Virus genome (UHGV): UHGV-1961940
DNA length: 20,717 bases
From: a virus
Direction: 5' to 3' (one strand)
Shown: positions 1,255 to 19,054 of the stretch, piece by piece
Position numbering within the stretch: the first letter of the stretch is position 1
How the letters are laid out: each line of letters begins with the position of its first letter
The notes under the pieces: model-generated
Database searches by the model: none
Told to the model about the DNA's origin: nothing
Seen by the model: only the letters and a program-made list of their open reading frames with translations
Program-made: the position numbers and the translations under genes

Positions 1255-3333
1255 TTAAAAAGGCGTTTCATCATCCTCAAAACCAGGGACCGGGTCAGAG
1301 GATGGATCATCGTACTGGAGGTCTTCCTGCGTGTCAACAGGCTTAACAGTAGGAGTTACAACCTTATCAGCCACAACCTTGCCCATAGGTGTTTCTACAA
1401 CTGCATGCTCCTGATCCTCAAACATAGCCTGAGGTCTCCAAACAACCTCCCCACCTTCTCCGTCTGTAAACATTTGCATTTCTTTGTCCCAGTACCAATT
1501 ACTGGCATCATGGAACTTACCTGTGTGCGGGTCCATAACCAAAGTGTCAGCAATACCTAGAGTTTTTGCTGGACGGTTTTTAAGACCTACCAGACGGACA
1601 CGTCCACGAGAACGATCCACCATTTCTTCGGCCTCGACACCTATGACTACCCAACTCAACTGTTCAAGCCCAGCCGATCCTCGCAAATTCTCTTTTCGCA
1701 CAGGATACCAGAAAGGTAATGGGTTACCATCCTTGTCCTTAGGGGGCACAATCTCTGTACGTTTGAGGTGAGCGATCACCAAGATAAACACGTTAAACTG
1801 CTTACAAAACGCAGCCAGTTGGGTCATAGCCATGTCCAGTTCTTTTCGCTCATCCTTAACATTAAGCCCTGAAATTACCATGGACAGGTGATCCAGCACA
1901 ATATAACGACAATGGTACAGGCAAACCATTTGCTTAAGCTTGGTAATCAACTCGTCCACTGGAATAGACCCGAAATGTTTGAACACTTTGATTTTTCCAG
2001 CTTTTGCCCATGATTGGTGAATCTCTGCGTGTTCTTGATCAGTTAAAAACTGGCTAGGATCTTCAACAAACTCTTTAACATCAAACCCTAACTGGTTTGC
2101 ATACAAGGAGTTAATTGCTTCCTCTGGGTCCTCCTCAAGATGAATCATGCATAGACGATCATCCTCTTCGTAATCATCAGCCTTTGGACATGTCGGGTCC
2201 ATTAGGTATCTTGCAATACAGTGTTCCAGTTTTTTAGCTACAGTTGTTTTACCGCCTCCTGATGGACCTGTAAGCATTACGAGTGTCCCTTTGTGCAAGC
2301 CTTTTAGCATTTTTTGCAGTTTTGGGAACTCTGCGCTGATATCTACCCCGTTGGAAGTCTTTTTCCGCAAAGATTCGATAGAGAAGTCTTCTAAATCCGA
2401 TACAGCATCCGGTACATACTTAACAGGATGCCGGAACATGTTTACAATATCTTCCAGCTTTTTAGCCTTCAGCATGTCACGGATATCTTTTACACCGTCA
2501 GGATCGTTTACTTCACCAGGGTACTCTACGTGGTAAACGTTATCAGCCATCAAAAATGCTGCGATATTGTGCGTAGCCTCAACACCTTTAATGACGTGTT
2601 TTTGCTTCTCTACCTCGTTAGCTGCATCGTTATCCATTGCCAGCACAACTGTTCCATAGCTACGGATAAACTTCTCATTGTTTGCAAAAGTATCTACTGC
2701 GTTTGCACATCCGCAGTTAATTCCAACAAAAGGTAGGCAGGGTTTTCCTGCCAGATCACCACCGTTGATAACTGCATCGATCCCGTCCTGTACCTCTTTA
2801 GCCCACTGCTTCACCTTTGCCGGGGCTTTAGCGTTGGTGAGAATCCCTTTTACTTGTATCTGATATGCAGCCTGCCATGCTGCAATAACATCACCTTCTC
2901 CCTCGCAAACGTTAATCTGCTTACGGTTGTTGGAAGATGCACACAGCTTTTGACCAAACATCTGGGAGTTAGCCTTTACGATGCCAACAACGGAGAAATG
3001 GCCCCTTTGCTCTTTAGGAATCGTCCAGTCGCGCTTTTTGAAACCGGACAGATTTCCGTAGCGGTCGTAATATGGGAAATATGTTGCAGTGACTGTCACA
3101 CCGTCTTCTTGGGACAATGCTGATCGCACACCAAAATATTGTGCAGCCATCAGACCGATATTTTGTTGTGGGACAGGGACAATTTTAGTATTTTCTAAAA
3201 CAGTCTCTACAGTTTCAACTTCTTTTTCATCACGATAGTCTCGTTTCACACTTCCCCCACTTTTATACTTAGTTGCTTTCGGGTTTGGCTCACCGAAACG
3301 GTTGTATGCAGATGCCATAAATTTACTTCCCAT
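1255..3333 (-). CDS. Bifunctional DNA primase-helicase (TOPRIM primase domain + DnaB/T7 gp4-like hexameric helicase)
   Basis: TOPRIM-like acidic motifs 'CEGEGDVIAAW' and 'VVLAMDNDAANE'. Helicase Walker A 'LTGPSGGGKTT', Walker B 'YIVLDHLSMV', and arginine-finger-like 'RGSAGLEQLSWVVIGVE'. RBS 'taaggagcagaattaATG'. No Cys4 zinc-ribbon seen N-terminal to the TOPRIM. Confidence 0.8.
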   Translation of the reverse strand: MGSKFMASAYNRFGEPNPKATKYKSGGSVKRDYRDEKEVETVETVLENTKIVPVPQQNIGLMAAQYFGVRSALSQEDGVTVTATYFPYYDRYGNLSGFKKRDWTIPKEQRGHFSVVGIVKANSQMFGQKLCASSNNRKQINVCEGEGDVIAAWQAAYQIQVKGILTNAKAPAKVKQWAKEVQDGIDAVINGGDLAGKPCLPFVGINCGCANAVDTFANNEKFIRSYGTVVLAMDNDAANEVEKQKHVIKGVEATHNIAAFLMADNVYHVEYPGEVNDPDGVKDIRDMLKAKKLEDIVNMFRHPVKYVPDAVSDLEDFSIESLRKKTSNGVDISAEFPKLQKMLKGLHKGTLVMLTGPSGGGKTTVAKKLEHCIARYLMDPTCPKADDYEEDDRLCMIHLEEDPEEAINSLYANQLGFDVKEFVEDPSQFLTDQEHAEIHQSWAKAGKIKVFKHFGSIPVDELITKLKQMVCLYHCRYIVLDHLSMVISGLNVKDERKELDMAMTQLAAFCKQFNVFILVIAHLKRTEIVPPKDKDGNPLPFWYPVRKENLRGSAGLEQLSWVVIGVEAEEMVDRSRGRVRLVGLKNRPAKTLGIADTLVMDPHTGKFHDASNWYWDKEMQMFTDGEGGEVVWRPQAMFEDQEHAVVETPMGKVVADKVVTPTVKPVDTQEDLQYDDPSSDPVPGFEDDETPF

Positions 3334-3483
3334 TAATTCTGCTCCTTACTACAGGCTCGTTTGCTAAGAATACAGCTTTTGCCCAGCCAATAACTGCACC
3401 ACCAGACCCGTCAAATAGACTCCACACAACACCTTTGTGGTAGTGTTCTTTGTAGATGAATTTCAATTTGCTGTCTCCTAATG

Positions 3484-3511
3484 CAAAAAGCCCCACCCTT
3501 TCGGGCAGGGC
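3484..3511 (-). terminator. Rho-independent terminator candidate (minus strand)
   Basis: Minus-strand RNA GCCCUGCCC-GAAA-GGGUGGGGC followed by UUUUUG: GC-rich stem with a 2-nt internal mismatch, tetraloop and U-tract. Sits immediately after the stop of ORF 3518-3724. Confidence 0.5.
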
Positions 3512-3517
3512 CTAGTG

Positions 3518-3724
3518 TTAAACCCGGATACCTATTGTATACTCGGTGGATACCAATGTCAAATCTAAATTTAAAATTTCTTGCATCTCATAATATGCGT
3601 CCAGGGTTAGATACATTTCCCCATCCTTTTCTACATACTTGTCCAAGTGCTTGAGGCATTTCGGATAACTATCAAGTGCAGCTTTCAGGCACTCAAACTC
3701 TGTGCTGTTGATGAATCCTTCCAT
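3518..3724 (-). CDS. hypothetical protein (68 aa)
   Basis: Track ORF in the same orientation and tightly packed with its neighbours. No motifs recognised. Confidence 0.45.
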   Translation of the reverse strand: MEGFINSTEFECLKAALDSYPKCLKHLDKYVEKDGEMYLTLDAYYEMQEILNLDLTLVSTEYTIGIRV

Positions 3725-3729
3725 CTTGG

Positions 3730-3996
3730 CTACCCGTTCTTAATGATAGCACTGTAGTGAGATTTAGCTTCCTGAATGCAATGGGTCCAAGCATCAACCT
3801 TCTCTTCGAAAAGTCCAAAGAACTTCTTTTTGGTGAGCTTCAGATTCTTTAAGTGCTTAAGCACTCGGTTGCCGATTACAGCCACATCACGAAACTTAAG
3901 AATCACTTTGTCGATATCCTCGCGACCTATTTTCACAAAACAGGCCTTACACATTTCAGGGGAGGAATAACCAACTTTCCACATAAAATCTGACAT
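3730..3996 (-). CDS. hypothetical protein (88 aa)
   Basis: Track ORF, stop 6 nt before the next start. No motifs recognised. Confidence 0.45.
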   Translation of the reverse strand: MSDFMWKVGYSSPEMCKACFVKIGREDIDKVILKFRDVAVIGNRVLKHLKNLKLTKKKFFGLFEEKVDAWTHCIQEAKSHYSAIIKNG

Positions 3997-4008
3997 ACCA
4001 CCTTCTCC

Positions 4009-4311
4009 TTATTCCTTAAAAGCTATGATATCATAGGAACTTGCAGATGATTCTGGTGAAGAATGACTCCAGTCCAGGTCATCAGAATAGTCAGCGTACT
4101 GTGCGCCACTACGCAGTTTGTATTTTACCCACTTACCTGGTGCAGGGTTTTCACCACCTTCCCATACTTCCCAGCCTTCTGGCAGGCCGTCCTGAGCGTA
4201 GTCATCCACCTCACTAATGATCTTAGGGTTTGGCACCAAGATCCCCGCAGGCTCTTCCTTCCGGATAAGTGTCCACACAGCGTATGTGTCTGAGCAGGCG
4301 CATGATAGCAA
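4009..4311 (-). CDS. hypothetical protein (100 aa)
   Basis: Track ORF on the operon strand; Trp/acidic-rich. An antisense ORF (4063-4293 +) and an overlapping one (4125-4322 -) are less likely. Confidence 0.4.
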   Translation of the reverse strand: MLSCACSDTYAVWTLIRKEEPAGILVPNPKIISEVDDYAQDGLPEGWEVWEGGENPAPGKWVKYKLRSGAQYADYSDDLDWSHSSPESSASSYDIIAFKE

Positions 4312-4402
4312 AGTATATCCACTATTCAGAACTTCTGCAAGCTCTTTTCAGCATCTTCCAATTTGGCTAAGTGGTATTGGATAATCTTCACACCTGTAAT
4401 CA

Positions 4403-4708
4403 TCAGAAACCTCCCACTTCTTCAGCAAATGCAGCTGCTGTCGTCGCTGCATCCAGATAGGACTCTAGTTCACGGGCTGCACGTTTGTAAATTGAGTGGC
4501 GCATATCGTTTGGCAGTTGGTGGGAGTCCACCTCTTCACCGTTGTGGTAAACATGCACATCGGTGATTTGTCTAAATCCGTAACAGTCAACATCAGAATC
4601 CCGGCACTCCGGATCTGGCAACTGAACAACTGCCTGAGCTTCCACAGTAAACATATCGTCAAGTTCGAAATCGATTTCAAAAGTGTATGGTTTATAACGT
4701 TTCATCAT
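4403..4708 (-). CDS. hypothetical protein (101 aa)
   Basis: Track ORF immediately upstream of the methyltransferase stop, same strand. Confidence 0.4.
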   Translation of the reverse strand: MMKRYKPYTFEIDFELDDMFTVEAQAVVQLPDPECRDSDVDCYGFRQITDVHVYHNGEEVDSHQLPNDMRHSIYKRAARELESYLDAATTAAAFAEEVGGF

Positions 4709-4721
4709 TTGATTGTACTCT

Positions 4722-6047
4722 TTATTGATCAGAATTATCTTTCGTAATTAAGGTCTGGGTAAGTTTGTAATAGCGGAAGCCACCGCCACCTTGCCAGCTT
4801 GCAGACTTAGAAATACCACCTTGATCTTCACCATCAATCACTTTTTGCAAGCGAGGGATAATATGGGTATGACAATGATCACCCAGTTCGATCAAGATCC
4901 AACGTCTTTTCATCTTGTGGGCTACAGCAGCAGTAGTTCCCGAACCGCCGAATGAATCCAATACCAAATCACCTTCTCGCGTACACATTTCGAGAATCCG
5001 CTTCAAAAGCGCTTCTGGTTTTTTTCCATTTTTGAAACTAACGCCGCCTTCATTTGCTATTCCATTCCAACTAATGTCTGTCCAAACATCAGTTATTAGT
5101 TCCGCAGGTTGCATCTCACCGTCAATTTCCAAAAGCCTGTTGGAGTAAAAGACCATTTGCCTACCATTTGCGATATAAAATCCTTCAACATCCTCATTCG
5201 GATGTACATAAACCTTATCCCTATCTTTCTTTGACTTCTCGATAGTTTCTTTTCTCTTTATTTTAGCGCCACCACCAATTGCAACAGATTGAAATACACG
5301 TTCTGCATTATCAATTGCGAATTGTGCTAATTCATCATCGAATGTATCAGGCAGTTTTTTCTTGGCTTCTTTTGCATCTTTATAGCCATTGGCCTTTGCA
5401 AACGCATCGGCAATACCGCACCACGTCCAATTTTTATAATGGTCATCCGGGTTTAATAGGTATTTGTTATATCCTGTATCATACCCTTTAGGTATATAGA
5501 TTTTGTTAAGCGGTTTCTGGGTGCGATCTTTTGCATATACAAGCAAAAAGTTTGCTGTGGAGAAAACTGTGGCTCCTGTTGCCTTAAATCCCGAAGGGGA
5601 ATTTGTGGTCATCGATATGGTATTTAACTGATTTGCACGACCAAAAATCTCGTCCATCAAAACTTTTAAATACGCCATTTCGCAATCATCTAAGTGAACG
5701 AATATTACCCCATCATCACTTAGAAGATTACGAATTATTTCTAACCTATCCCTCATTAAGCCCAGCCAAATGGAATGCTCCAGGCTATCATCGTAATGCT
5801 CAAAAGCCCTCCCGGTATTGAATGGTGGGTCTATGTAAACACACTTCACTTTGCCTGCATACTCTTGCTCTAGCGCCTTCAATGCTAATAAGTTATCTCC
5901 AAAAATCAGTTTATTATCAAAAATATCGTTTTCGGTCACTTTCTGGCTGTGGTAAGATTTGCTAGAATCTTCTAACAAAATGTGTGGCTCTAACTTTTTG
6001 CGCTCGTTTTTACCTATCCAGGTAAGTTCTAATTTGGTTTTGCTCAT
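4722..6047 (-). CDS. Site-specific DNA methyltransferase, beta-class (N6-adenine or N4-cytosine; Mod-like / N6_N4_Mtase family); apparently orphan
   Basis: Motif IV 'IDPPFN' near the N-terminus (residue ~73) and AdoMet motif I 'DSFGGSGTTAAVA' near the C-terminus, giving the beta-class permuted order. N-terminal 'MSKTKLELTWIGKNE' is typical of Mod-type methyltransferases. No restriction-endonuclease partner recognised among neighbours. Confidence 0.85.
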   Translation of the reverse strand: MSKTKLELTWIGKNERKKLEPHILLEDSSKSYHSQKVTENDIFDNKLIFGDNLLALKALEQEYAGKVKCVYIDPPFNTGRAFEHYDDSLEHSIWLGLMRDRLEIIRNLLSDDGVIFVHLDDCEMAYLKVLMDEIFGRANQLNTISMTTNSPSGFKATGATVFSTANFLLVYAKDRTQKPLNKIYIPKGYDTGYNKYLLNPDDHYKNWTWCGIADAFAKANGYKDAKEAKKKLPDTFDDELAQFAIDNAERVFQSVAIGGGAKIKRKETIEKSKKDRDKVYVHPNEDVEGFYIANGRQMVFYSNRLLEIDGEMQPAELITDVWTDISWNGIANEGGVSFKNGKKPEALLKRILEMCTREGDLVLDSFGGSGTTAAVAHKMKRRWILIELGDHCHTHIIPRLQKVIDGEDQGGISKSASWQGGGGFRYYKLTQTLITKDNSDQ

Positions 6048-6074
6048 CGTTTGGTGCTCTCCTTAGTTTTTTGT

Positions 6075-6091
6075 GGGGAGGAGGCCTCCCC
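6075..6091. other. GC-rich hairpin (GGGGAGG-agg-CCTCCCC) in the intergenic gap upstream of the methyltransferase start
   Basis: 7-bp perfect stem read directly. On the coding (minus) strand it is followed by an A-run rather than a U-run, so it is not a canonical terminator for the operon. Confidence 0.3.
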
Positions 6092-6108
6092 TTTATACTC
6101 ACATCTTA

Positions 6109-6492
6109 CTACTCAAGGTCTTCAGAGTCAAGCTCAAAAAGAATCAAACTGTGCATGCCTGCAGATAGATTAACACACCCTGCAACAATAAGGGTCTGAT
6201 AGTAAGGTTCAGCACCCTCAATGTCTTCGTTAAAATCCACAACAAGGTAGTCACCTTTGTTAAAGGTGTATTTGTCCGATGTAAACGCAAAACCTGCCCA
6301 GTCCCCTACTGCAGGGTCTTTATCAGTCACCTTTGTTAACAGTAGATCTTTTTCACGGGATCTTTTAGTAAAATCGTGAATCACAACATCCTTCTCTTCA
6401 GGAGTTGGATTGCCACACACGTAGTTAACTATATTTCTCCACAAACTCATACGTCCCCTCTTCGGCTCTGGTTTCAAAATCTTTCCTGACAA
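6109..6492 (-). CDS. hypothetical protein (<=127 aa; start uncertain)
   Basis: Track ORF begins with TTG at 6492 and overlaps the helicase 3' end by 68 nt. An internal ATG at 6450 would shorten the overlap. Confidence 0.3.
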   Translation of the reverse strand: MSGKILKPEPKRGRMSLWRNIVNYVCGNPTPEEKDVVIHDFTKRSREKDLLLTKVTDKDPAVGDWAGFAFTSDKYTFNKGDYLVVDFNEDIEGAEPYYQTLIVAGCVNLSAGMHSLILFELDSEDLE

Positions 6493-7816
6493 TTTTGTCT
6501 AAGTCAGGGAATGTTGTATTGTAAAACTCTACGACTCGCGGGTCAACAATAATGTCAACTTCTCTTAGTGGACGCAACAAGTTTATTCCTTGTATTGTCT
6601 TAACCCGACTCAAAGCAACATACGTCATCCCAGGAGAGAAAGCTCCGTTCTTTCCAAGGTCCAGGTTGTAACAATCTAGCGTAAGTCCTTGACTTTTATG
6701 AGATGTTACGGCATACCCAGATTTCAGAGGAAGTTGCCTGTATGACCCAATCACTACCCTCTCTATAAACTTCTCCATCTTCCTTTCTGCAATGTTGTAT
6801 CTCTGAGATGGCTTATACTCGTTATTTTCCCACAACCTCTGCTCTATGTCAACCTGTGTTCCATCTTCAAGCTCTACCACCACCGCCTTGTTCTTAAATT
6901 TAACAATTGTGGCACGTGTTCCGTTAACATAATAAGGTACTTTGTGCGTCGGGTCAACATCGTTGGCGGTTATCATAACTTTCATGCCAATTTTCAACTT
7001 CATCTCCTGCTCAACTGGCAGGGTGGAGGGAAACTTACCCTTCATTTCACCAGTGTATACCTTCTCTGGGGCGTTGATGGCATCATAGAACCTTCTGTTC
7101 ACTTCCTCTGCTTGTTTGTTGGTGGCGCAAATTGTGAGAGCGTCTGTTGGTACACCGCCTTTGTAACAGCGAGCATTAAGTTCTGCTACAACCTCTTTTA
7201 TGCGACGACCCTCACGAACACAGTTGAGCATTGTGGCAAATCGAATAGACTCCTGTCGGAACTGGTCTATTAGGGCTATGTTGTGAAGGTCCAGCTCTTT
7301 CCAAGATTCGGTATAGCAACATAGGTCTGTGTGGTAGAAGTTGAAGTAGGCCTCCTTCTCCATAGAAGAGACAACAGGAGGTGCCTGGTAAAAATCGCCA
7401 AACAATATGACCTGTATGCCTCCGAAAGGTTTGTCATTTTTTCGAAGGAAGCGGAGTTTTCTATCCATCTCTATAAACTTATCAGCACGGATCATAGAGA
7501 TTTCATCGATAATTAGGATGGTAAATGCCTTGCTTTTCAAAGGCTTTGCTGTTTTTGCCCTTATTGCAGTCCAGTCAGACTCCATGCTCACACCTGCTGC
7601 AAGATCGAAGGTTCGGTGTGCTGTTGCTCCATTAACGTTTAAAGCGGCTACCCCTGTCGGGGCAACCGTTATGCAAGAGTCTCCATACATTGACTGGATC
7701 ATGTTGATGAGGTACGTCTTCCCACAACCTGCGGGTCCTGAAACGAAGACATTCTCCCCACTCATGATTGCAACAAGGGCAGCATCTGTGCCTACATCAT
7801 ACTGCCCTTTTTCCAT
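6425..7816 (-). CDS. SF1B DNA helicase, Pif1/RecD/Dda-like
   Basis: Walker A 'VSGPAGCGKTY', Walker B 'ILIIDEISM', 'FGDFYQAPPV' motif, 'AVTSHKSQGLT' and 'YVALSRVK' C-terminal motifs characteristic of the Pif1/RecD/Dda family. Confidence 0.85.
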   Translation of the reverse strand: MEKGQYDVGTDAALVAIMSGENVFVSGPAGCGKTYLINMIQSMYGDSCITVAPTGVAALNVNGATAHRTFDLAAGVSMESDWTAIRAKTAKPLKSKAFTILIIDEISMIRADKFIEMDRKLRFLRKNDKPFGGIQVILFGDFYQAPPVVSSMEKEAYFNFYHTDLCCYTESWKELDLHNIALIDQFRQESIRFATMLNCVREGRRIKEVVAELNARCYKGGVPTDALTICATNKQAEEVNRRFYDAINAPEKVYTGEMKGKFPSTLPVEQEMKLKIGMKVMITANDVDPTHKVPYYVNGTRATIVKFKNKAVVVELEDGTQVDIEQRLWENNEYKPSQRYNIAERKMEKFIERVVIGSYRQLPLKSGYAVTSHKSQGLTLDCYNLDLGKNGAFSPGMTYVALSRVKTIQGINLLRPLREVDIIVDPRVVEFYNTTFPDLDKIVRKDFETRAEEGTYEFVEKYS

Positions 7817-9021
7817 TACGCCTCCTCGTAGATAATGTCGATGATGTTACCATCACGGTCAACTACGTATTCAATCGGATCGCCATCTTTGCGTGATTCC
7901 GGTGCTGCTACGATTTCGTAGCGGCATGCACGGCACTTAGCACTGTTGTGTTGGTATGGCACACTAACCACATCCGCAGGGTCAACCATAACCATCATTA
8001 CAGTGCCATAGCCCGCTGCATACTCTTTGCTGGCGCAGTGCAGGCCATAAGAACACGCAGCTTCCGGATCATCTTCTACAAAGTTACGAGGCATGGACAC
8101 AAAAGCACCCTGGTATTGTGGAACTTTACCGCTGTGCCAATCCACCCACCTGCTCCCGTTAAACTGAACCCCCTTATAGCAAATGATTCGACCATCTTCT
8201 GCAACCTGGATGTCATTAGCCTGCATGAAATCGTAGAGCATGTTCACAGATTTTGCAGACGGGTTGCGTAGCAGACGGACAAGGAATTTAACATATCGGT
8301 CGTCCAGTGTTCCATCTACATAATCTTCCTCAATTTTCTTTGCAATGGTGGATCGCATCTCTACACCGTAGTAGTAGAGCTTACCATCTTTCATGATCAG
8401 GTTGTCTGCAAGTGTGGTGAACTCATTCTTGCGTTCCAGCCAGACAAGGATTTCACCAATTGCCTCATCATATTCCTGAACAGAAATATGGTCGAAGACT
8501 TTCTGGTAAACTTCCTCACTTTCGCTGCGGCGAATTTCAAAAATGCCTTCGTTGCAGGTGATCTGGAGGAGTTCCCCGCAAATAACTACCAAAGGCTCGA
8601 TGCTTCGAGACTGTTGCTGAGACACACTGCTCACTACTTCCAGCACCGGATCTTTGACTTCTACTAAAGGTTCTTCTGACTTGATTGCTACCCCAGTGAA
8701 CCCCACACCGTGAACAACACACAGTGGGTATACCACGCCCCAACGTTTAACGGAACCTTCACCTGAATCTAAGATCATGGCGTACTTACCGTTGTCTTCC
8801 AGTCCGTAGCGGAATAAACGGGCCTCTTCGCGGGTTTCAAAATCCTCACGGGTATAGCAGACACTGTCTCGGTCAGGATCAAACAGCTCTGGGGCACCTA
8901 CTGCCAGTGTCCATGTTGTAGTACCTTTCTCAATAGCACATGTGAAACCCTTCTTCTCAAGTTCTGCACGGCGGTCGCGTGCTTCTTTACGAGTTTTGAA
9001 ATGTTCGTAGATGAAAATCAT
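7816..9021 (-). CDS. rIIB: rIIB-like protein
   Basis: C-terminal half aligns by eye to T4 rIIB as I remember it: '...NPSAKSVNMLYDFMQANDIQVAEDG...MPRNFVEDD...SYGLHCASKEYAAGYG...VDPADVVSVPYQHNSAKCRACRYEIV' against the T4 '...NPSQKAVSRLFDFLVANDIEITEDG...MPR...DDD...GLHVCSK...HPRDVVSIP...NDAKMRTCQYEVV' pattern. Lies directly downstream of the rIIA-like gene. Confidence 0.75.
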   Translation of the reverse strand: MIFIYEHFKTRKEARDRRAELEKKGFTCAIEKGTTTWTLAVGAPELFDPDRDSVCYTREDFETREEARLFRYGLEDNGKYAMILDSGEGSVKRWGVVYPLCVVHGVGFTGVAIKSEEPLVEVKDPVLEVVSSVSQQQSRSIEPLVVICGELLQITCNEGIFEIRRSESEEVYQKVFDHISVQEYDEAIGEILVWLERKNEFTTLADNLIMKDGKLYYYGVEMRSTIAKKIEEDYVDGTLDDRYVKFLVRLLRNPSAKSVNMLYDFMQANDIQVAEDGRIICYKGVQFNGSRWVDWHSGKVPQYQGAFVSMPRNFVEDDPEAACSYGLHCASKEYAAGYGTVMMVMVDPADVVSVPYQHNSAKCRACRYEIVAAPESRKDGDPIEYVVDRDGNIIDIIYEEA

Positions 9022-9031
9022 AGCTGTCTCC

Positions 9032-11014
9032 TTATTTGGTGTTATTCTTTGCGTCGATCAGTTCACGGTATTCAATCATAGCAGGAGTGTCCCAATATTT
9101 CAAGCCCACATGCTTCAAAAGTGGATATTTCTTTTCCAATCTTGCAATATAGGCCTTCCCGCACTTGACTCGGTTGGCGATTAAGATTTTGGCACGATGA
9201 TTTAGCTCACTGTGCTTCCACGCGGTGTTACCTTCCCACTTGTGGAAATGTGGCCGATAATTTCCAAAATCTTGCATGGGGATAATTTTCCCTAATTGTC
9301 TATACAGGCTGTCATATGAAGTTTCATTTGCTGCGCGAGTCAGTAAGAATTTCCAAGCATCCTCTTTCAACAAATGTTCCACATTCTTCTCTGTAACATA
9401 CTGGCAATCAGGATCAGTCCAAAGCAGACGAGATTCTGATACCAAGTACAGATCTTCACCTTCAGGAATCTGGAGTGCAGCACGCACACGGTCATAATTT
9501 TGCTGGTAGATGTTACTCAGCTGTCCCAGCCAACAACTTCCACGTTGGATATCACCCTCATAAGGAATGCAGTGCTTAATCTTCTTGAACTCTGCCTTAG
9601 TAATACGTTCACGACGGAAGTAACCATCCTTCTCAAGCTTTTTAACCCAATAACCTGGCTCGTAATGAGTTTTTGTTTCACCTTTCTTCGCAGGTCGGCG
9701 AGGGAGCTCTGATAACAATTTGACAGTATCTGCAAAGAACGGATGGTGTGCCGCCTCTTTAAACTCTTTCACCAGATCCGTGTTCCGGCAATAGAAAACG
9801 TTGCGTCCGGTGATTTCGCTTAAGTAGTTACACTTATTTCGGTTATATTTACCATCTCCGTCGTTAAATACAAGGTATACACCTCGTAAGAACTCCGACT
9901 TTCCGTAACGAGCATAGCCTATGCGGCCTTTATTTAAGCCGCCAGCGAAAATTTCACAATCGCCTAAGTCGCCAAGCCCTGTTTCTTCCCAACGGTTCCA
10001 CATAAAGTTTTTGCCGAAGATGTGTCCGAACACTCCACTATTCTTCATCATTTCACGTGCTTCTGCGGAGGTTTTTGCCGTCTCCAGTTCTGCAATAACT
10101 TCTGCCCCGCGAAGACGTATACCTTCTTTGACAAAGGCCTCCAGGCGATCCTGGAATCCACCGTCGTCATGGCCCTCTATGGTCCATTCACGCCCAGGGT
10201 TAATATTGCAATCCCCAATAGGAATTTCCACGCAGATTGCAGGGTAATCGGTCAATGTCTCCAGGAACTTGGAGCGGTAAGGTTGGTGACCCATCACAAC
10301 ACGGCTCTCATCAGAACTGGTATAACCTTTCAGGATGGTCATTTTCCAGCCATCCTTCTCGTAATGATACTGTGCCTCAACCTTGTCACCTTCTAACATC
10401 TTACTGGTCATAGGATCGGTGACGATGAACGGAAACTTCGCATAGCGTAAGCACGATGCAATAGCAGTGCAATATTTCAGGACATGCTCTTTCTTAACAT
10501 GGAACTGAACTTTTACCCCGTTGTGCTCTTCAGTCTTCCGCTCACGGATCTTGGTAACGTTTGGGATACCCTGATCCAAGAACAATAGATATGTGCTTTC
10601 AACACCATTGTGCACACTGATCACATCGAAAGTGTCCACCATACTGAACGGAGCCTTTGAACCAACACCTTTATTACCTACCAGAGCGTTGCTGTTGCGC
10701 TTGGTTGACTCCCCGAGATTCATGAAAGTGTTGCGGACCATCTCTTCTGACATGCCCAATCCAACGTCCTGCACAAAGAAGTATGGTTCAAGGTCTGTAG
10801 GAGAGTGAATGATGATCGGTACATCACCCCGTCCAGACTCAACATGGGAGTCCACAGCATTGAAGATTGGTTCACGGCAGCTTGCCAGCACCTTATCTTC
10901 GTAAATCCCTTTAATGATTAGCCCAAAAGTCTCTTTGTTCAGAGAAATTGAGCCCCTGGTGACCTCCATATTTCCGGTCAGCACTGCTTTAGTTTCATTA
11001 CTGTTTACAATCAT
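9032..11014 (-). CDS. rIIA: rIIA-like protein with N-terminal GHKL (histidine-kinase-like) ATPase domain
   Basis: GHKL boxes: N-box 'REPIFNAVDSH', G1 'VQDVGLGMS', G2 'VGNKGVGSKAPFSMVDTFDVISVHNG'. These resemble the T4 rIIA N-terminal 'RELITNMIDAH...DFGPGMS...[25 protein letters not shown]' as recalled. Followed by rIIB-like gene in the canonical order. Confidence 0.75.
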   Translation of the reverse strand: MIVNSNETKAVLTGNMEVTRGSISLNKETFGLIIKGIYEDKVLASCREPIFNAVDSHVESGRGDVPIIIHSPTDLEPYFFVQDVGLGMSEEMVRNTFMNLGESTKRNSNALVGNKGVGSKAPFSMVDTFDVISVHNGVESTYLLFLDQGIPNVTKIRERKTEEHNGVKVQFHVKKEHVLKYCTAIASCLRYAKFPFIVTDPMTSKMLEGDKVEAQYHYEKDGWKMTILKGYTSSDESRVVMGHQPYRSKFLETLTDYPAICVEIPIGDCNINPGREWTIEGHDDGGFQDRLEAFVKEGIRLRGAEVIAELETAKTSAEAREMMKNSGVFGHIFGKNFMWNRWEETGLGDLGDCEIFAGGLNKGRIGYARYGKSEFLRGVYLVFNDGDGKYNRNKCNYLSEITGRNVFYCRNTDLVKEFKEAAHHPFFADTVKLLSELPRRPAKKGETKTHYEPGYWVKKLEKDGYFRRERITKAEFKKIKHCIPYEGDIQRGSCWLGQLSNIYQQNYDRVRAALQIPEGEDLYLVSESRLLWTDPDCQYVTEKNVEHLLKEDAWKFLLTRAANETSYDSLYRQLGKIIPMQDFGNYRPHFHKWEGNTAWKHSELNHRAKILIANRVKCGKAYIARLEKKYPLLKHVGLKYWDTPAMIEYRELIDAKNNTK

Positions 11015-11511
11015 TTATTGCGCTCCTTGTAGTAGATATGGCTCCCGAATTGAGTTGTCCTCTGCATCTTTTTTGCCCATTTCGGTCGTACTTTGGTTGT
11101 ATGGTAGTGTGTTGCTCCACCTGTTATGTCCATAGCCATGTATGCAACATGGTTGTTATTATAGACCTTTATAAGCATCTTTGCAAGACTTTTAGCGTGA
11201 TCCCATGAATCTTTTTCTGTCACCTTAAAAGTTTTGCCGTGGTTTGTCCACGAAAACTGGTTAGGTTGGTAGACAATCTTTCTTATAGTGTCTGGGTATT
11301 TAGGGTGGGATTTCCTGTTTAGTGTGGCAAACCCAGATGCCAGCATACCCATCGTGCCATCTCCTCTAGCTTCCCTGTAGATATTGCATGCCAGAATGTT
11401 TTCCTTAGTATCTGATGGCTTGCAAGTATGATATACTTTTTGTTTTGGTGCTGCAACAACAGGCAGCGATAAAAGTGCGCTCAAAATAATAGCAAAGATC
11501 TTAATTTTCAC
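11011..11511 (-). CDS. Secreted cell-wall hydrolase, SleB/Hydrolase_2 family (probable lysis enzyme)
   Basis: N-terminal signal peptide 'MKIKIFAIILSALLSLPVVAAP'. SleB-family motifs 'NIYREARGDG', 'FATLNRKSHPKYPDTIRKIVYQPNQFSW'. GTG start at 11511 with a GGAG RBS. Confidence 0.75.
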   Translation of the reverse strand: MKIKIFAIILSALLSLPVVAAPKQKVYHTCKPSDTKENILACNIYREARGDGTMGMLASGFATLNRKSHPKYPDTIRKIVYQPNQFSWTNHGKTFKVTEKDSWDHAKSLAKMLIKVYNNNHVAYMAMDITGGATHYHTTKVRPKWAKKMQRTTQFGSHIYYKERNK

Positions 11512-11520
11512 AATGACTCC

Positions 11521-11548
11521 AAATAGAAAATCCCCGCCGAAGCGGGGG
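11521..11548 (-). terminator. Rho-independent terminator (minus strand)
   Basis: Minus-strand RNA CCCCGC-UUCG-GCGGGG stem-loop followed by UUUUCUAUUU. Lies between the stop of the upstream ORF (11561) and the lysin RBS. Confidence 0.6.
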
Positions 11549-11560
11549 AGGTCTTAGAAA

Positions 11561-11943
11561 TTAATCGTAGTGTGCCAAAATCTCTCCATCGTTGCAAGTT
11601 CCCTCTACAAAGTTATGAAGATTCATGCACTCATCTTGATAGAAGAATTTACCGCTTTTCAGCCGTAGGCCAAACAACTCCGCATCTCCACGATGGCAAG
11701 CCTCTACAAGTTCATAGATTTCATACGGCAACTCTCCGTCGTCATGGAAGAATCCAGCCTTATCGTTGACATAAATGAAGAAATAATCACTGCTATCGCA
11801 AGCGTCCAATATTTTAAACCAGACTTCATCTACATCTTTTTCTCGGATATCGATCACGCAAGTGGAACTGCATTCGTACTCCTTCTCCGGCTCCTCGGTC
11901 AATACCACCAGGTAGTTTCCCCGCTTACCTACTTTAGCCATAC
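11561..11943 (-). CDS. hypothetical protein (~126 aa from ATG 11943; track ORF extends to 11989)
   Basis: ATG at 11943 is preceded by 'AAGGGGG' and avoids the 38-nt overlap with the upstream gene. No motifs recognised. Confidence 0.5.
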
Positions 11944-11951
11944 AACCCCCC

Positions 11952-13136
11952 TTAAGCTTTAGCCAAAATGGCGCTAAACTCTTCACCAAACTCTTTTACA
12001 ATCTTCATCAGGTTTGGGTATGCTTTGATCAGCTGAGCAACAATCTTGTCACGCCCTTTACCGATAAGCAAGGCATTTCCTAAGGCATTAGGTTTCATCA
12101 TCGCCATAAAGACTGAGAATACAAAATCTCGGTTCTCGTCCTTGAAGTTTTCCCAAAGGAAATCGAGGAAGTTTGCCACGCAGCTGACAAGATCTTCGTC
12201 TGAGATACTTGCATTTTCCATCATATTGCGAATAGCGATACAACCTTCAGATCCAAGAATCCACAAAATGTCTGGCTGCTTAGGACCTACGTATTCTTTG
12301 CAGCCACCTGCCATAATCCGACCGATTTCCGGTAAATTACGTTTCTTGGTGTGGTAAGTCCAGATCTCTACCGCTGCAGTGTGACCAATAGCACCTTGTA
12401 GAAGAACACGGGCCATAGCGTCAGAAATAATACCGCTGTCAAAATCGTGCAAGATGTCAGATGCAGCAACCCAAGATCGTGGTGTGGCAAAAGATGGACA
12501 ATTAATCTCAGCCATAGCCTCATAATTATCAATAGCTGATGGAACTCTTTTCAGATACCCAATTACAGAGGAGTGAACCCCGTTGAGGAATGCGTAGTCC
12601 TCAATAAACACCTCTGCATTGCTTGTAACCTCTACAATGATAAAACGGTTAGCCAGAGGGGCTTCGAGCGCCGAAAGAACCGCACCATCTGTAGAACGGT
12701 TACCCGCAGCCACAAAAACAGAACCCTTAGGGAATGCATAGGTGCCGCACTTGTGGTCAAGCATAATTTGCATTGCAACCTTTTGCAGGTAGTTATCTGC
12801 ATGAGTGAGCTCATCCAGAAAGATAATTCCGCTCCAGTCAGGATCCGCAGGCCAAAATTCTGGAATTGCAAACACTGTACGTGTAGTTCCATCCGCTTCT
12901 ACAGGGATAGGTAGCCCAGATAAGTCGGCAGGATCTTTATCTGACAGTCGCACGTCAACAAGGTTGTCATCTCGCTCACCGAACATATTATCAGCGATCT
13001 GCTTCATCACCTGGCTTTTACCCACACCCATTGGTCCCAAAATTAGGACAGATCGGCTATGACGTTGGGCAAACTGAATAATAGCTGGCAACTCACGGAC
13101 AGTGATTTGACCACTTTCGAATACGTTTCTTGACAT
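11952..13136 (-). CDS. MoxR-like AAA+ ATPase (AAA_5 / CbbQ-NorQ-CobS-like)
   Basis: Walker A 'LILGPMGVGKSQ', Walker B 'IIFLDELTHAD', and a sensor-1 region 'VFVAAGNRSTDGA...LEAPLANRF' that resembles the MoxR 'ATxNP...L..A..DRF' pattern. Confidence 0.8.
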   Translation of the reverse strand: MSRNVFESGQITVRELPAIIQFAQRHSRSVLILGPMGVGKSQVMKQIADNMFGERDDNLVDVRLSDKDPADLSGLPIPVEADGTTRTVFAIPEFWPADPDWSGIIFLDELTHADNYLQKVAMQIMLDHKCGTYAFPKGSVFVAAGNRSTDGAVLSALEAPLANRFIIVEVTSNAEVFIEDYAFLNGVHSSVIGYLKRVPSAIDNYEAMAEINCPSFATPRSWVAASDILHDFDSGIISDAMARVLLQGAIGHTAAVEIWTYHTKKRNLPEIGRIMAGGCKEYVGPKQPDILWILGSEGCIAIRNMMENASISDEDLVSCVANFLDFLWENFKDENRDFVFSVFMAMMKPNALGNALLIGKGRDKIVAQLIKAYPNLMKIVKEFGEEFSAILAKA

Positions 13137-13405
13137 TAGTAAAAGTCCTCTACTTGTGTGTAAGTGTTTTCAAAGTTTTCCAAAACAGATATCACATCGA
13201 ATCTGTCAATATCATACGTGACTCTCCAGTTGTACGCAACCCTTTCTGCTGTTGCCTCTTCTGGCGCTAGTCGTCTGCTGGCATAAAAGAGTGTTGGAGT
13301 ACACTTTCTTGCTTGCCCTCTAACTTTCCCATAATAATATCTGTGAATATCTTTGTCAAAATTTAACTCTTTTTCTGCACGAAGTTCATATTGCTGGTAT
13401 AACAT
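13136..13405 (-). CDS. hypothetical protein (89 aa)
   Basis: Track ORF; its stop overlaps the AAA+ ATPase start. Confidence 0.4.
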   Translation of the reverse strand: MLYQQYELRAEKELNFDKDIHRYYYGKVRGQARKCTPTLFYASRRLAPEEATAERVAYNWRVTYDIDRFDVISVLENFENTYTQVEDFY

Positions 13406-13449
13406 CTCTACTACTCCTTAAGCAGCATCCTTGCCGCCATTCCTGCCCA

Positions 13450-13830
13450 CTAAAATGCAGTCCGAATCCAGACAAGGTTCTTATCTGCCCAATCATAGAG
13501 GCAAGTCATTGCACTATTGAATTGCTCACACGGAGGATAATCTTCTTCCATCTGGCGCATAGCAGAGCCTTGTGGGTAAAGCTCCCGTGCTGCAAACCAC
13601 GCATCGTAGTCATCAACGGTGTCGAAGTAGTATACAACATCCTCTAACTCAGGATCGAACTTTGAACTATCAGGATCCAGTTGTTCAGGGAACTTGGAGC
13701 GTAACTTGCCAGCCACAATACTTGCCAACTCGCTAACATGCTTATTGTCCCACTCCACTAGCTTCCCGTCTTCAGTGATGCGTCCTAACCACTGATCATG
13801 AAGGTCAACTGTTGTCTTCCACTGAGCCAT
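13450..13830 (-). CDS. hypothetical protein (126 aa), acidic and Trp-rich
   Basis: Track ORF in the operon orientation. Confidence 0.45.
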   Translation of the reverse strand: MAQWKTTVDLHDQWLGRITEDGKLVEWDNKHVSELASIVAGKLRSKFPEQLDPDSSKFDPELEDVVYYFDTVDDYDAWFAARELYPQGSAMRQMEEDYPPCEQFNSAMTCLYDWADKNLVWIRTAF

Positions 13831-13832
13831 TA

Positions 13833-14090
13833 TCAGTCCACCTCTTCTTCTCGTTGTAGTTCAAGATACCCGTAGGTCTGGACATCTTGAAGGGTGTGGA
13901 ACTCCCCCTCTGCCGCTAAGGCACGAACAACTTGGCACAAAACCTTATGAGGAACTTCATCCAAACCTAGATTCAGTGCAGGAAACACCTTATCTAAGTC
14001 AACAAAATAAACGAACTGTAGCTCACCAGCTTCAAAAGGTGTATCTTCAATAAACATCTTCTCGGCATTAGTCAAGATCTGCACTTTCAT
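13833..14090 (-). CDS. hypothetical protein (85 aa), acidic C-terminus
   Basis: Track ORF; ATGA start/stop overlap with the upstream gene at 14090. Confidence 0.45.
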   Translation of the reverse strand: MKVQILTNAEKMFIEDTPFEAGELQFVYFVDLDKVFPALNLGLDEVPHKVLCQVVRALAAEGEFHTLQDVQTYGYLELQREEEVD

Positions 14091-14446
14091 TATTCTACCT
14101 CCTCTTCTTTTTCTTCGGCATTAGTTTCATGGCTACCCCACTCGGGAGTTTCCACCTCGATAGTAAACTCACGCACTACACGGTAATTGCCCATGAAGCG
14201 CTCTACTTCGTCAAGGCTTATGGAGAGGCCATTGGCAACCAGGTCTGCAGCACCCTCTTCTACCAGGTAGTCCAGATTGGCTTCCAGAGCCTCAGGTTCA
14301 AACCCTGTCAATGCAATCAGATAACCTTCCCCTTCATCAGGGAGGACAATACAGCCCAATTGATTTTCTTTAAAAAGGCAGTGACCATCATTATTGATTG
14401 GGTGTTCATTGCAGTAAATAGCTGCACGATAAGTAACTTTAGACAT
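14090..14446 (-). CDS. hypothetical acidic protein beginning MSKVTYRA (118 aa from ATG 14446; track ORF starts at TTG 14467)
   Basis: AAGGAG RBS 9 nt upstream of the ATG at 14444-14446, and an in-frame TGA two codons upstream of the TTG. The start region lies inside the 29-bp inverted repeat. Confidence 0.5.
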   Translation of the reverse strand: MSKVTYRAAIYCNEHPINNDGHCLFKENQLGCIVLPDEGEGYLIALTGFEPEALEANLDYLVEEGAADLVANGLSISLDEVERFMGNYRVVREFTIEVETPEWGSHETNAEEKEEEVE

Positions 14447-14451
14447 CGGTA
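14423..14451. repeat. Left copy of a perfect 29-bp inverted repeat (reverse complement of 16285-16313)
   Basis: Checked base by base: the reverse complement of 14423-14451 is 'taccgatgtctaaagttacttatcgtgca', identical to 16285-16313. Both flanks mismatch immediately outside the 29 bp. Confidence 0.9.
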
Positions 14452-14459
14452 AGGTCTCC

Positions 14460-14738
14460 TTAGGCAATTGTCATTTTACATTCTTGAAATTTTAACACAA
14501 GACGGTAATTGTGTCTAGTGTCTAAAAAGATTTTTTCAACCATCAGGCACACGGTATAACCGTCCATCTTGTTGACAACAAAATCTCCAGGATGAGGGAG
14601 GATGTCTCCCGGATTGGGGAAACATAGTCCACTCAGAAAGGCATCGTCAGTGGTGGACTTAATAGATTTCCACACACTGTCTGCCTGAACATGTTCACCG
14701 ACGTAATATACATTACCACATGCCTTCATCATAGTCAA
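14460..14738 (-). CDS. hypothetical protein (92 aa)
   Basis: Track ORF; ATGA overlap with the upstream 299-aa gene. Its TAA stop overlaps the RBS of the next gene. Confidence 0.45.
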   Translation of the reverse strand: MTMMKACGNVYYVGEHVQADSVWKSIKSTTDDAFLSGLCFPNPGDILPHPGDFVVNKMDGYTVCLMVEKIFLDTRHNYRLVLKFQECKMTIA

Positions 14739-15634
14739 ACCCTCGCATAAATTAAACTTGTATCAGTATACTTCTTTAATGGGTAAATATCCTGTCCATA
14801 GATGCAATCATTAAACACCTCATCTACCCAAAGGCTACACTTATATCCCATCATTTCTAAAACACCCATCTCTTCTTCGGTAAACTTATCACCGCTCTTG
14901 CAAGATGTCAATACCTCATTCTGAACTCTTGCTACCTCGAAGCGGTTATTGGCAATATCGCTATTGGCGATCAAATACTCACCTAGAGGGTGTGCGGCAT
15001 TAAAGATGCACAGTGGACGGCTGACGTAATAGTCTCCAGGTGTATAAAAATTGTTGAGGTCTTTCACTAGAACATTCTTATCAGTCACTTCATTTATAAC
15101 ATCATGCATATCGCACATCTTTATATGTTTGAGGATTCCATCCCCCATCACAAAATAAAAACTTGCTGAGACACTTTCGGCATAGATCTTACTAGATCCG
15201 TTGTAGTTGTATTTTACTCGGATGCTAACGGGGGTTTTTCCTGTCGCGTTAGCCATCATCCAAAGAAATGGCAGCTCATACTTCTCCTCTGAGGAAACAA
15301 AAGGTGAGGTAGCCAGAGATCGAAAACCTCCAGAGAAGTTGAAAGTTACAGAACCGCTCCGGCGGTATGATACCGCGTATTCTACTTTTATATCGACATA
15401 CCCATTGGAATAGGTGTGTCCTTCATTATCTAAATATGTCCACTTATCAGACCCAGATACCAATCTACGCTCAATAACCTTCATCACTATAGGAATTAAT
15501 GGGTTGGTACAAACCGCTTTTGAAGTAGCTTTATCATCTAAAGCCTCGTAAATTGCAGAAAGGATGTCCCCAGCTGAAAGATTGGTTGTTATGTCCTGTT
15601 TCCACCGCGTACTAAAACTGTTAAGATTTGCCAT
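14735..15634 (-). CDS. hypothetical protein (299 aa), first gene of the leftward operon
   Basis: AGGAG RBS 9 nt upstream of the ATG at 15634, and a near-consensus promoter directly upstream. No motifs recognised. Confidence 0.6.
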   Translation of the reverse strand: MANLNSFSTRWKQDITTNLSAGDILSAIYEALDDKATSKAVCTNPLIPIVMKVIERRLVSGSDKWTYLDNEGHTYSNGYVDIKVEYAVSYRRSGSVTFNFSGGFRSLATSPFVSSEEKYELPFLWMMANATGKTPVSIRVKYNYNGSSKIYAESVSASFYFVMGDGILKHIKMCDMHDVINEVTDKNVLVKDLNNFYTPGDYYVSRPLCIFNAAHPLGEYLIANSDIANNRFEVARVQNEVLTSCKSGDKFTEEEMGVLEMMGYKCSLWVDEVFNDCIYGQDIYPLKKYTDTSLIYARV

Positions 15635-15674
15635 AAGTAAGTGCTCCTATGTTAGTTTTCTTTCGAATGGGTGC

Positions 15675-15703
15675 ACTATATTGTGGAGTTAGAGTAAAGT
15701 CAA
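15675..15703 (-). promoter_or_regulatory. Sigma70/SigA-type promoter for the leftward operon (-35 TTGACT, 17-nt spacer, -10 TATAGT)
   Basis: Minus-strand reading 'TTGACT ttactctaactccacaa TATAGT': -35 at 15698-15703, -10 at 15675-15680, about 40 nt upstream of the ATG at 15634. Confidence 0.45.
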
Positions 15704-15721
15704 CACGTTTTTGATGTTGAC
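15699..15721. promoter_or_regulatory. Palindrome GTCAACA-N9-TGTTGAC spanning back-to-back -35 elements (candidate operator)
   Basis: Perfect 7-bp inverted arms at 15699-15705 and 15715-15721. The left arm contains the leftward -35; the right arm contains TTGACA (15717-22), which with 17-nt spacing to 'TACGAT' (15740-45) gives a possible rightward promoter. Confidence 0.4.
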
Positions 15722-18263: not shown

Positions 18264-18527
18264 ATGGCAACAGAGTTAAAATTTGCATCAAACCGTAAAA
18301 CTAAGAAGTATCTGTCCTCAGTAGCTCCAGGCACTGTGGTGATGTTTGTTGATGAACTTGGGGATGTGAATACAGCACTTGTTGTAAAATCACATCCTGC
18401 AAACATATATGTTGGGGTATTTGACCTGTTCAGAAAGGTGTTTGTAGAACTGCCTCACAGTTTGGTTGTTACAGAAATGGATGCCTGCATAGAAATTCTT
18501 GGCGAAGTTATGGTGGAGGAACAATAA
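18264..18527 (+). CDS. Small protein, paralog family member A (87 aa)
   Basis: RBS 'GAGGAGG' upstream. Shares 'MAT...F.S..K.KK...GTVV...VK...FDL...LP...VTE.D..I.ILGE' with the next ORF. Confidence 0.6.
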   Translation: MATELKFASNRKTKKYLSSVAPGTVVMFVDELGDVNTALVVKSHPANIYVGVFDLFRKVFVELPHSLVVTEMDACIEILGEVMVEEQ

Positions 18528-18790
18528 TGGCTACCAGCATTGTATTCAATTCTAAGGTGAAGAACAAAAAGCGTGCAGACAGTTTTCCGTGTGGGACCGT
18601 GGTAAGTTGCGACGGAGACGGCATTCAAAACATAGTTATGATTGTCAAAACAGGAGAACATTGTGTGTGGGGGTTCGATTTAGAAAATAATGAGTTGTAC
18701 GATCTGCCGCCAAACATGAAAGTTACAGAGCTTGACACCAAAATTACCATCCTTGGAGAGACAAGCTATTCAAAAGAAGGAGGAGAATAA
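18527..18790 (+). CDS. Small protein, paralog family member B (87 aa)
   Basis: Start overlaps the preceding stop; GGAGG RBS. About one third identical to member A by eye. Confidence 0.6.
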   Translation: MATSIVFNSKVKNKKRADSFPCGTVVSCDGDGIQNIVMIVKTGEHCVWGFDLENNELYDLPPNMKVTELDTKITILGETSYSKEGGE

Positions 18791-19053: not shown

Positions 19054-19054
19054 T

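Follow-up and report, generated by a model that had tools for sequence, protein, structure and literature searches.

Proteins related to those examined here have been described in several systems. In phage T4, rIIA and rIIB are encoded next to each other and are protectors against exclusion by lambda RexAB. In Bacillus, the spore-cortex lytic enzymes SleB and CwlJ (structures 4F55 and 4FET) share a catalytic domain that recurs in phage proteins. Muralytic enzymes exported by the Sec pathway independently of a holin comprise P1 Lyz, phage 21 R21 and Oenococcus fOg44 Lys44, all of which are essential endolysins of their own phages. We analyzed a 20,717-nucleotide (nt) stretch of viral DNA (UHGV virus genome UHGV-1961940, referred to as the window), in which rIIA- and rIIB-like genes adjoin a gene for a SleB-type hydrolase with a predicted export signal at positions 7816–11511. 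An earlier note on this DNA had read the neighborhood as a potential lysis-control arrangement. Our analysis does not support that reading: hydrolase and rII genes are dispensable in a near-identical phage, the working lysis genes lie elsewhere, the rII pair is, by analogy to a close relative, an anti-Rex device, and the adjacency is lineage-specific. We favor instead, with a probability of roughly 0.78, that the locus belongs to the replication/accessory module of an rV5-like Vequintavirus, where three packed, co-oriented accessory genes are neighbors by inherited gene order and do not form a lysis switch.

Gene order, close relatives and lysis genes

Three open reading frames (ORFs), all on the minus strand, fill 7816–11511 exactly, matching the interval that the earlier note had given for the three genes. 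They encode a SleB/CwlJ-type hydrolase of the Hydrolase_2 family (11011–11511, 166 amino acids (aa), GTG start; Pfam PF07486, PHROG 938, PDB 4F55), rIIA (9032–11014, 660 aa; PHROG 612, T4 rIIA alignment) and rIIB (7816–9021, 401 aa; PHROG 609, T4 rIIB alignment). The hydrolase stop codon TGA and the rIIA start codon ATG overlap in a 4-nt ATGA at 11014–11011, a gap of 10 nt separates the rIIA stop from the rIIB start, and the rIIB stop shares 1 nt with the start of a Dda/PIF1-like helicase gene (6425–7816, minus strand, 463 aa; Pfam PIF1, E 1e-32; PHROG 325, E 7e-112), the next member of the operon-like string. On the 5' side of the hydrolase gene lies a hypothetical-protein gene (11561–11941, minus strand, 126 aa, phrog_12370). 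The order of transcription is hence 126-aa gene, terminator, hydrolase, rIIA, rIIB and helicase. The rII pair had been described as lying directly upstream of the lysin. This order has to be inverted: the hydrolase gene is transcribed first, its stop overlapping the rIIA start, and the rII genes are found at lower plus-strand coordinates because the whole string is on the minus strand. Minus is the coding strand over 1255–15634 of the window, with a switch in the sign of the GC skew near 15.5 kb.

A megablast search with 7500–11800 matched 121 phage records, the best being Escherichia phage ime (99.4%). The other named matches are rV5-like Vequintavirus, some of them deposited under Campylobacter names, and we assign the window on this similarity to Vequintavirus, the rV5-like myophages of E. 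coli. In rV5, ime, Murica, EdH4 and the BASEL phages Bas48–Bas54, gene order, lengths and overlaps of the locus are identical to those of the window; nucleotide identity is 96–99.4%, protein identity 96.5–99.8%, and only point substitutions distinguish them. The same rIIA/hydrolase overlap is present in the type phage rV5 (NC_011041). Among the records listed, the annotated ones carry the product names “cell wall hydrolase”, “RIIA protector from prophage-induced early lysis”, “rIIB protector” and “helicase”. This makes the locus a known one, recorded in public annotation and characterized in part by experiment.

Phage MaxBurger (Bas54) encodes a hydrolase, rIIA and rIIB that are 98.8%, 98.5% and 96.5% identical to the proteins of the window. 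Its essential genes have been mapped by transposon sequencing at TA sites (bioRxiv 10.1101/2025.11.20.689424, supplementary file 9; the source of all Bas54 data given here). Insertions hit 32 of the 36 TA sites of the hydrolase gene bas54_0065, 90 of 101 in rIIA and 56 of 59 in rIIB, all three genes being classed as non-essential, whereas the lambda-R-like endolysin gene bas54_0202 (0/24 TA sites) and both spanin genes took no insertions. Under laboratory conditions, therefore, lysis does not require the SleB-like enzyme, and the enzyme that it does require is encoded ~68 kb away. In a clinical E. coli isolate, disruption of the hydrolase gene was not depleted (log2 fold change (log2FC) −0.88, p 0.50).

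The positions of the lysis genes can be read from the relatives. In CarlMeissner (Bas48), genes for i- and o-spanins adjoin the terminase gene at 1–683, a “putative holin” is annotated at 86121–86492 and the endolysin gene is located at 127119–127589, so that spanins, “holin” and endolysin of the relatives are 27–68 kb from the hydrolase locus. The CarlMeissner endolysin (MKLDKNVQRKAFLDMIAYSEGTDNGRQ...) matches PHROG 90 “endolysin” (E 2.6e-56) and lacks an export signal; from its resemblance to the lambda R sequence we take it to be of the lambda R type. PHROG profiles identified endolysin and spanins of the relatives, and a Pfam search with their endolysin and “holin” gave no match. The “putative holin” (bas48_0115/bas54_0115), the only gene so annotated in these phages, matches solely PHROGs of unknown function and tolerates transposon insertions in Bas54 (supplementary file 9 of the same source); it appears not to be the real Vequintavirus holin. 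Host lysis would proceed via the cytoplasmic lambda-R-like endolysin and the i/o-spanins encoded elsewhere, plus a holin.

Around the hydrolase gene, neither a holin nor spanins lie alongside as they do in a canonical lysis cassette. Among the small ORFs near the locus no credible holin-like transmembrane (TM) protein was found, in line with the earlier note, which had identified no holin nearby. Three hydrophobic frames were considered and rejected as holins: 10914–11135 and 9011–9184, both on the plus strand, are antisense to coding genes and broken by stop codons in relatives with 86–95% identity, and 12368–12532 on the minus strand lies out of frame within a MoxR ATPase gene, loses its TTG start in one relative and displays non-conservative changes.

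For the rII pair, a phenotype is available from EdH4, whose rIIA shares 99.5% and whose rIIB shares 97.8% identity with the proteins of the window. Knock-down of either gene by CRISPRi-ART left infection of Rex-free E. coli unaffected and reduced plating on hosts carrying lambda RexAB (PMC11879866). By analogy, the rII pair of the Vequintavirus lineage is an anti-Rex counter-defence. rIIA and rIIB would act jointly, as cytoplasmic or inner-membrane-associated proteins, enabling growth on hosts with abortive infection (Abi) systems of the Rex type, e.g. lambda RexAB.

Neighboring genes add to this picture of the region. A MoxR-like ATPase gene (11952–13136, minus strand) is split from the hydrolase gene by the 126-aa gene, and the helicase gene (6425–7816, minus strand) adjoins rIIB. 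The Bas54 orthologues of MoxR ATPase and helicase are non-essential in K-12 and were strongly depleted in the clinical isolate (log2FC −7.2 and −6.3), and phages are reported to need the MoxR ATPase when facing a predicted defence system, DS-28 (bioRxiv 10.1101/2025.11.20.689424). The neighborhood of the hydrolase and rII genes looks like a counter-defence gene cluster.

Conservation of the hydrolase-rII adjacency

Outside Vequintavirus, hydrolase and rII genes occur together in Mydovirus Ro1, another member of the Vequintavirinae, whose hydrolase is 59% identical and is followed by rIIA. In Certrevirus CR9, the hydrolase gene (50% identity) is followed by a 61-aa ORF and then by the orthologous helicase gene (40%, E 4e-102), with no rII genes between them; lack of rIIA and rIIB from Certrevirus is also stated in the CB7 paper (PMC7344957). 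Since CR9 retains hydrolase and helicase without rII, the 3.2-kb rIIAB pair behaves like an indel flanked by two conserved neighbors. The Certrevirus orthologues CB7_83 (Pectobacterium phage) as well as CR3_087 and CR9_095 (Cronobacter phages) take the same position upstream of the helicase, and, unlike in the window, no rIIA/rIIB accompany them. For these orthologues, a signal peptide (SignalP-positive) and toxicity upon expression in E. coli have been reported, and for CB7 also a small holin candidate with two TM domains, the gene of which overlaps the hydrolase gene (PMC7344957).

Just past the hydrolase stop of CR9 (~3420–3700 of the examined stretch), we noted unannotated short hydrophobic frames, e.g. 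MKNLFIWAITLLAVWMF..., with a start overlapping the stop codon. They may represent the gene for a small membrane protein that has been described as following the hydrolase gene in other Certrevirus phages. A general rule that a small membrane protein follows the hydrolase wherever rII is absent was rejected, as annotated neighbors are devoid of TM segments in phAPEC8-like and phi92-like phages, DT57C, JG004 and CR9.

SleB-like, signal-bearing genes are located among early/DNA-metabolism genes without adjacent rII in Stephanstirmvirinae (Nernie, nieznany), in T5-like DT57C and in Pakpunavirus JG004. Together with the Vequintavirinae, these represent several families of large virulent phages that infect Gram-negative bacteria. 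Among the 80 best hydrolase loci of viral metagenomes, tblastn placed rIIA/rIIB within 6 kb in two, both of them Vequintavirus contigs with 93–97% identity. As to the rII side, 2645 phage records contain an rIIA homologue, and in T4 no hydrolase adjoins rII.

A more distant Hydrolase_2 homologue is CwlQ of Vibrio phage Vp670 (30% identity over residues 40–161, E 7e-8). CwlQ belongs to a two-gene holin-endolysin module, works only together with HolA and has no effect alone (PMC6180450). Unlike CwlQ, the hydrolase analyzed here is not encoded beside a holin, and it is dispensable, as judged by its Bas54 orthologue.

Properties of the hydrolase and the rII proteins

The 166-aa protein matches Pfam Hydrolase_2 (PF07486) with E 2e-19 and 70.5 bits (cut-off 27) along profile positions 2–100 of 100, PHROG 938, which is labelled “endolysin”, with E 9e-28, and the SleB catalytic domain structure 4F55 with E 2.5e-6. 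Its motif Y-R-E-A-R-G-D aligns on YGESRGE of SleB, placing Glu47 (codon 11371–11373, minus strand), the predicted catalytic residue, on the SleB glutamate. Glu47 is invariant when the protein is aligned with six homologues from phages of five lineages, and the catalytic glutamate is indispensable to SleB's activity as a lytic transglycosylase (PMC12331253). The hydrolase is thus, on sequence grounds, a probable lytic transglycosylase, and the mature enzyme would cut the glycan strands of peptidoglycan via Glu47.

The phage protein retains the catalytic domain and glutamate motif of the Bacillus enzymes and differs in its surroundings. Pfam found no PG_binding domain in the hydrolase, where the signal-like sequence alone precedes the catalytic domain; because an N-terminal peptidoglycan-binding domain is lacking, the architecture is closer to CwlJ than to SleB. 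Unlike SleB, the phage enzyme bears a putative Sec signal, and, unlike both SleB and CwlJ, it has no link to sporulation, its target, if any, being Gram-negative peptidoglycan. SleB requires muramic-delta-lactam, which Gram-negative peptidoglycan does not contain. Two cysteines just before Glu47, Cys30 and Cys42 (window 11371–11424, minus strand), are kept in Vequintavirinae and Stephanstirmvirinae and not in the T5-like homologues; they could form a periplasmic disulfide.

A Sec signal peptide is predicted for residues 1–20 (MKIKIFAIILSALLSLPVVA; 11452–11511, minus strand), with cleavage before APKQK. Signal peptide and cleavage site were called by rule of thumb, based on hydrophobicity and composition, and n-, h- and c-regions can all be recognized. 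The n-region contains two Lys (+2) and is followed by a hydrophobic core of ~15 residues in which L, I, F and V abound, these four making up 10 of the 17 residues in IFAIILSALLSLPVV. The 19-residue Kyte-Doolittle mean of the N-terminus, 2.34, is among the highest of the annotated genes of the window. The c-region has a Pro at −4 and V-x-A at −3/−1 (V-V-A, with A following the predicted cut) and no lipobox Cys. Each of the seven phage homologues in the alignment likewise begins with a hydrophobic segment, as do 73 of the 80 homologous ORFs from viral metagenome contigs (four truncated), so that the export signal is, as far as sequence comparison can tell, a family trait. The description as a signal-peptide lysin accordingly agrees with this heuristic call and with its conservation.

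Heuristically, the N-terminus resembles a cleavable Sec signal more than it does a Gly/Ala-rich signal-anchor-release (SAR) anchor, and the weakly hydrophobic, Gly/Ala-rich TM domain without cleavage site by which SAR endolysins are recognized was not found in the hydrolase. Readings as a lipoprotein or a virion-associated lysin were ruled out, given the missing lipobox and the cleavable type of the signal. The hydrolase would be exported by Sec to the periplasm and cleaved after Ala20, an export mode similar to that of P1 Lyz, R21 and Lys44, which belong to other enzyme families.

rIIA matches PHROG 612 RIIA with E 2.6e-123, residues 1–656 covering profile positions 1–722 of 725, and Pfam HATPase_c_3 with E 1.7e-8. 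Its first 198 residues align by BLASTP to T4 rIIA (28% identity, E 1e-21), the GHKL motifs of the two proteins coinciding, and for the C-terminal two-thirds no pairwise BLASTP alignment to T4 rIIA was obtained. The GHKL (Bergerat-fold) ATP-binding region comprises residues 50–147 (10574–10867, minus strand), as delimited by HATPase_c_3 and the T4 alignment, and N, G1 and G2 motifs are present (E48-x3-N52-x2-D55, D83-x-G85-x-G87 and G113-x2-G116-x-G118). rIIB matches PHROG 609 RIIB with E 2.4e-60 and T4 rIIB over 204 residues with 36% identity (E 2e-38); its homologues carry PF26926. Alignments to the T4 proteins are therefore significant for both members of the pair, homology extending over the N-terminal GHKL region of rIIA and the C-terminal core of rIIB, with the same adjacent order as in T4. 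As the rII and SleB matches are far beyond chance, the identifications of rIIA as a GHKL ATPase, of rIIB and of the SleB-type hydrolase, which the earlier note had made, hold. None of the outcomes by which that note would have been refuted in its own terms (missing rII alignment, Hydrolase_2 domain or signal peptide) was obtained, the signal peptide being a heuristic call. PDB sequence searches with rIIA and rIIB yielded nothing meaningful. Hydrophobicity analysis revealed no convincing TM helix in rIIA or rIIB, and any membrane association would therefore be peripheral.

The conserved RIIB core (residues 132–375; 7897–8628, minus strand) is common to T4 rIIB and was modeled by AlphaFold2 (AF2) with a predicted local distance difference test (pLDDT) score of mostly 80–94. 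Unlike T4 rIIB, the protein bears a different, lineage-specific N-terminal domain (residues 1–102; 8716–9021, minus strand), which the AF2 model folds into two beta-alpha-beta-beta repeats with pLDDT 60–84, followed by a disordered linker (101–141). The alignment with T4 rIIB starts at T4 residue 107 and leaves this domain unmatched, whereas the domain is conserved among Vequintavirinae rIIB proteins; a homologue search with the N-terminus alone returned only two fragments. Against Pfam SPOR, rIIB scores 18.2 bits at full length and 21.4 bits with residues 1–136 alone (cut-off 21), the match covering half the profile and one repeat only. A Foldseek search of the N-terminus against PDB gave nothing below E 0.1, with the SPOR domain of CwlC (1x60) on rank 12 (E 0.48). 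The resemblance to the SPOR peptidoglycan-binding domain is weak, and rIIB is without an export signal. A SPOR-like peptidoglycan-binding module on rIIB beside a wall hydrolase would be intriguing, if true.

Expression signals, rival explanations and meaning of the locus

An intrinsic-terminator-like hairpin, CCCCGC-TTCG-GCGGGG followed by ATTTTCTATTT, was found by scan and direct reading at 11522–11547 on the minus strand (stem 11547–11532). It separates the 126-aa gene from the hydrolase gene, closely preceding the ribosome-binding site of the latter, has a predicted RNA folding energy of −18.9 kcal/mol (z −2.3), is invariant in five Vequintavirus sequences and is annotated as a terminator in the EdH4 record. 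The claim that a terminator precedes the hydrolase is hence confirmed by the hairpin at 11547–11522. The transcript of the 126-aa gene would end there. A conserved Shine-Dalgarno sequence, GGAG (11517–11520, minus strand), is placed 5 nt before the hydrolase GTG.

The sole sigma70-like site close to the hydrolase start lies inside the hydrolase gene. This site, TTGCAA-17 nt-TATAAT at 11158–11186 (minus strand, 10/12 matches), is positioned ~145 nt 5' of the rIIA start, and similar matches are about as common in shuffled sequence; it could be a hydrolase-independent promoter for rIIA and rIIB. Because the nearest sigma70-like site is intragenic, the hairpin probably attenuates rather than blocks transcription, and the hydrolase would be translated from a read-through transcript. 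The terminator upstream, combined with the lack of a nearby promoter, therefore suggests that hydrolase expression is kept low via read-through.

How these observations are to be interpreted was weighed against other readings. Were the secreted SleB-type lysin and rIIA/rIIB one lysis-control module, membrane-associated rII proteins would gate or time the hydrolase independently of a holin. The genes are indeed adjacent and co-oriented with a 4-nt overlap, the adjacency is repeated in Mydovirus Ro1, no holin is nearby while the “putative holin” of the relatives is itself dispensable, and the N-terminal domain of rIIB is weakly SPOR-like. This resemblance is not significant, however, and each of the three genes is dispensable in Bas54, where endolysin and spanins took no insertions. 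Moreover, the EdH4 rII knock-downs are without phenotype in the absence of RexAB, Certrevirus retains hydrolase and helicase without rII, 78 of the 80 best metagenomic hydrolase loci have no detectable rII within 6 kb, and rII, found in 2645 phage records, has no SleB-like neighbor in T4. We consider such a module very improbable. A narrower variant, more improbable yet, would confine functional coupling of hydrolase and rII to Vequintavirus and Mydovirus, where the ATGA overlap and a SPOR-like, glycan-binding rIIB would let rII sense or buffer the envelope damage done by the hydrolase. If true, this coupling would tie the long-unexplained rII mechanism to peptidoglycan.

Two further readings concern the hydrolase itself. 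It might be a second endolysin, exported early by Sec, harmless as long as the envelope is energised and active after membrane depolarization; it would be redundant with the lambda-R-like enzyme in the laboratory and useful on hosts or in growth states where the latter works poorly. A muralytic domain whose catalytic Glu is intact, the predicted export signal, the reported toxicity of an overexpressed homologue, the label of PHROG 938 and the endolysin function of the distant CwlQ together with its holin all point in this direction. The two enzymes are not simply redundant, though, as the lambda-R-like endolysin gene took no insertions despite the presence of the SleB-like gene; the latter follows a terminator within the replication module, a long way from spanins and endolysin, and its disruption left fitness unimpaired both in K-12 and in the clinical-isolate comparison. 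We regard a second endolysin as possible but unlikely. Somewhat less likely is a non-lytic periplasmic hydrolase that would serve superinfection exclusion, phage competition, host range or anti-defence via peptidoglycan or muropeptides, as a member of a counter-defence neighborhood. In its favor, the neighbors are counter-defence or conditionally essential genes (MoxR ATPase against DS-28, helicase, rIIAB against RexAB), and the hydrolase is conserved in large virulent phages of several families, where its gene lies outside the lysis cassette. Yet the hydrolase was not depleted in the clinical isolate (log2FC −0.88, p 0.50), and we know of no exclusion system that uses a Hydrolase_2 enzyme.

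We therefore return to three accessory genes kept side by side by inherited gene order, a reading carried by gene identities, order and conservation and by the published dispensability and Rex phenotype. The hydrolase would be an auxiliary protein, dispensable in the laboratory, that may loosen or remodel the sacculus and thereby aid lysis or infection under some conditions. Several points weigh against this interpretation. Dispensability of the hydrolase in K-12 leaves room for an influence on when lysis occurs, the ATGA overlap would permit hydrolase and rIIA to be translationally coupled, and the adjacency of both genes extends to a second genus through Mydovirus Ro1. The export signal and its cleavage site are heuristic predictions; timing of transcription and read-through are likewise predicted, a literature search having yielded no Vequintavirinae transcriptome. 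The metagenomic count, finally, rests on a tblastn search that may miss very divergent rII near distant hydrolase homologues, and many contigs are short.

Elsewhere in the window, transcription becomes divergent between 15634, where the minus-strand genes end, and 15711, where plus-strand genes begin; 15634–15711 is probably a bidirectional promoter region. Four tandem small genes at 18264–19288 (plus strand; 87, 87, 87 and 77 aa) are divergent paralogues with 15–38% identity. Between the primase/helicase and N6-adenine methyltransferase genes, 3323–4708 (minus strand) harbors five small ORFs, and CarlMeissner carries a Dcm-like C5 methyltransferase and other small genes at the same slot (3197–5205 of the compared stretch). 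The 3323–4708 interval is a slot whose accessory genes vary.

Present in GenBank since the record of the type phage rV5 (NC_011041), the locus has little weight as a discovery. The useful outcome is a correction: the genes run in the order hydrolase, rIIA, rIIB, the working lysis genes are located elsewhere, and the adjacency is no lysis switch. For these phages, the questions raised are what purpose a widely conserved, putatively exported and non-essential SleB-like enzyme serves, and which role the lineage-specific N-terminal domain of rIIB plays.

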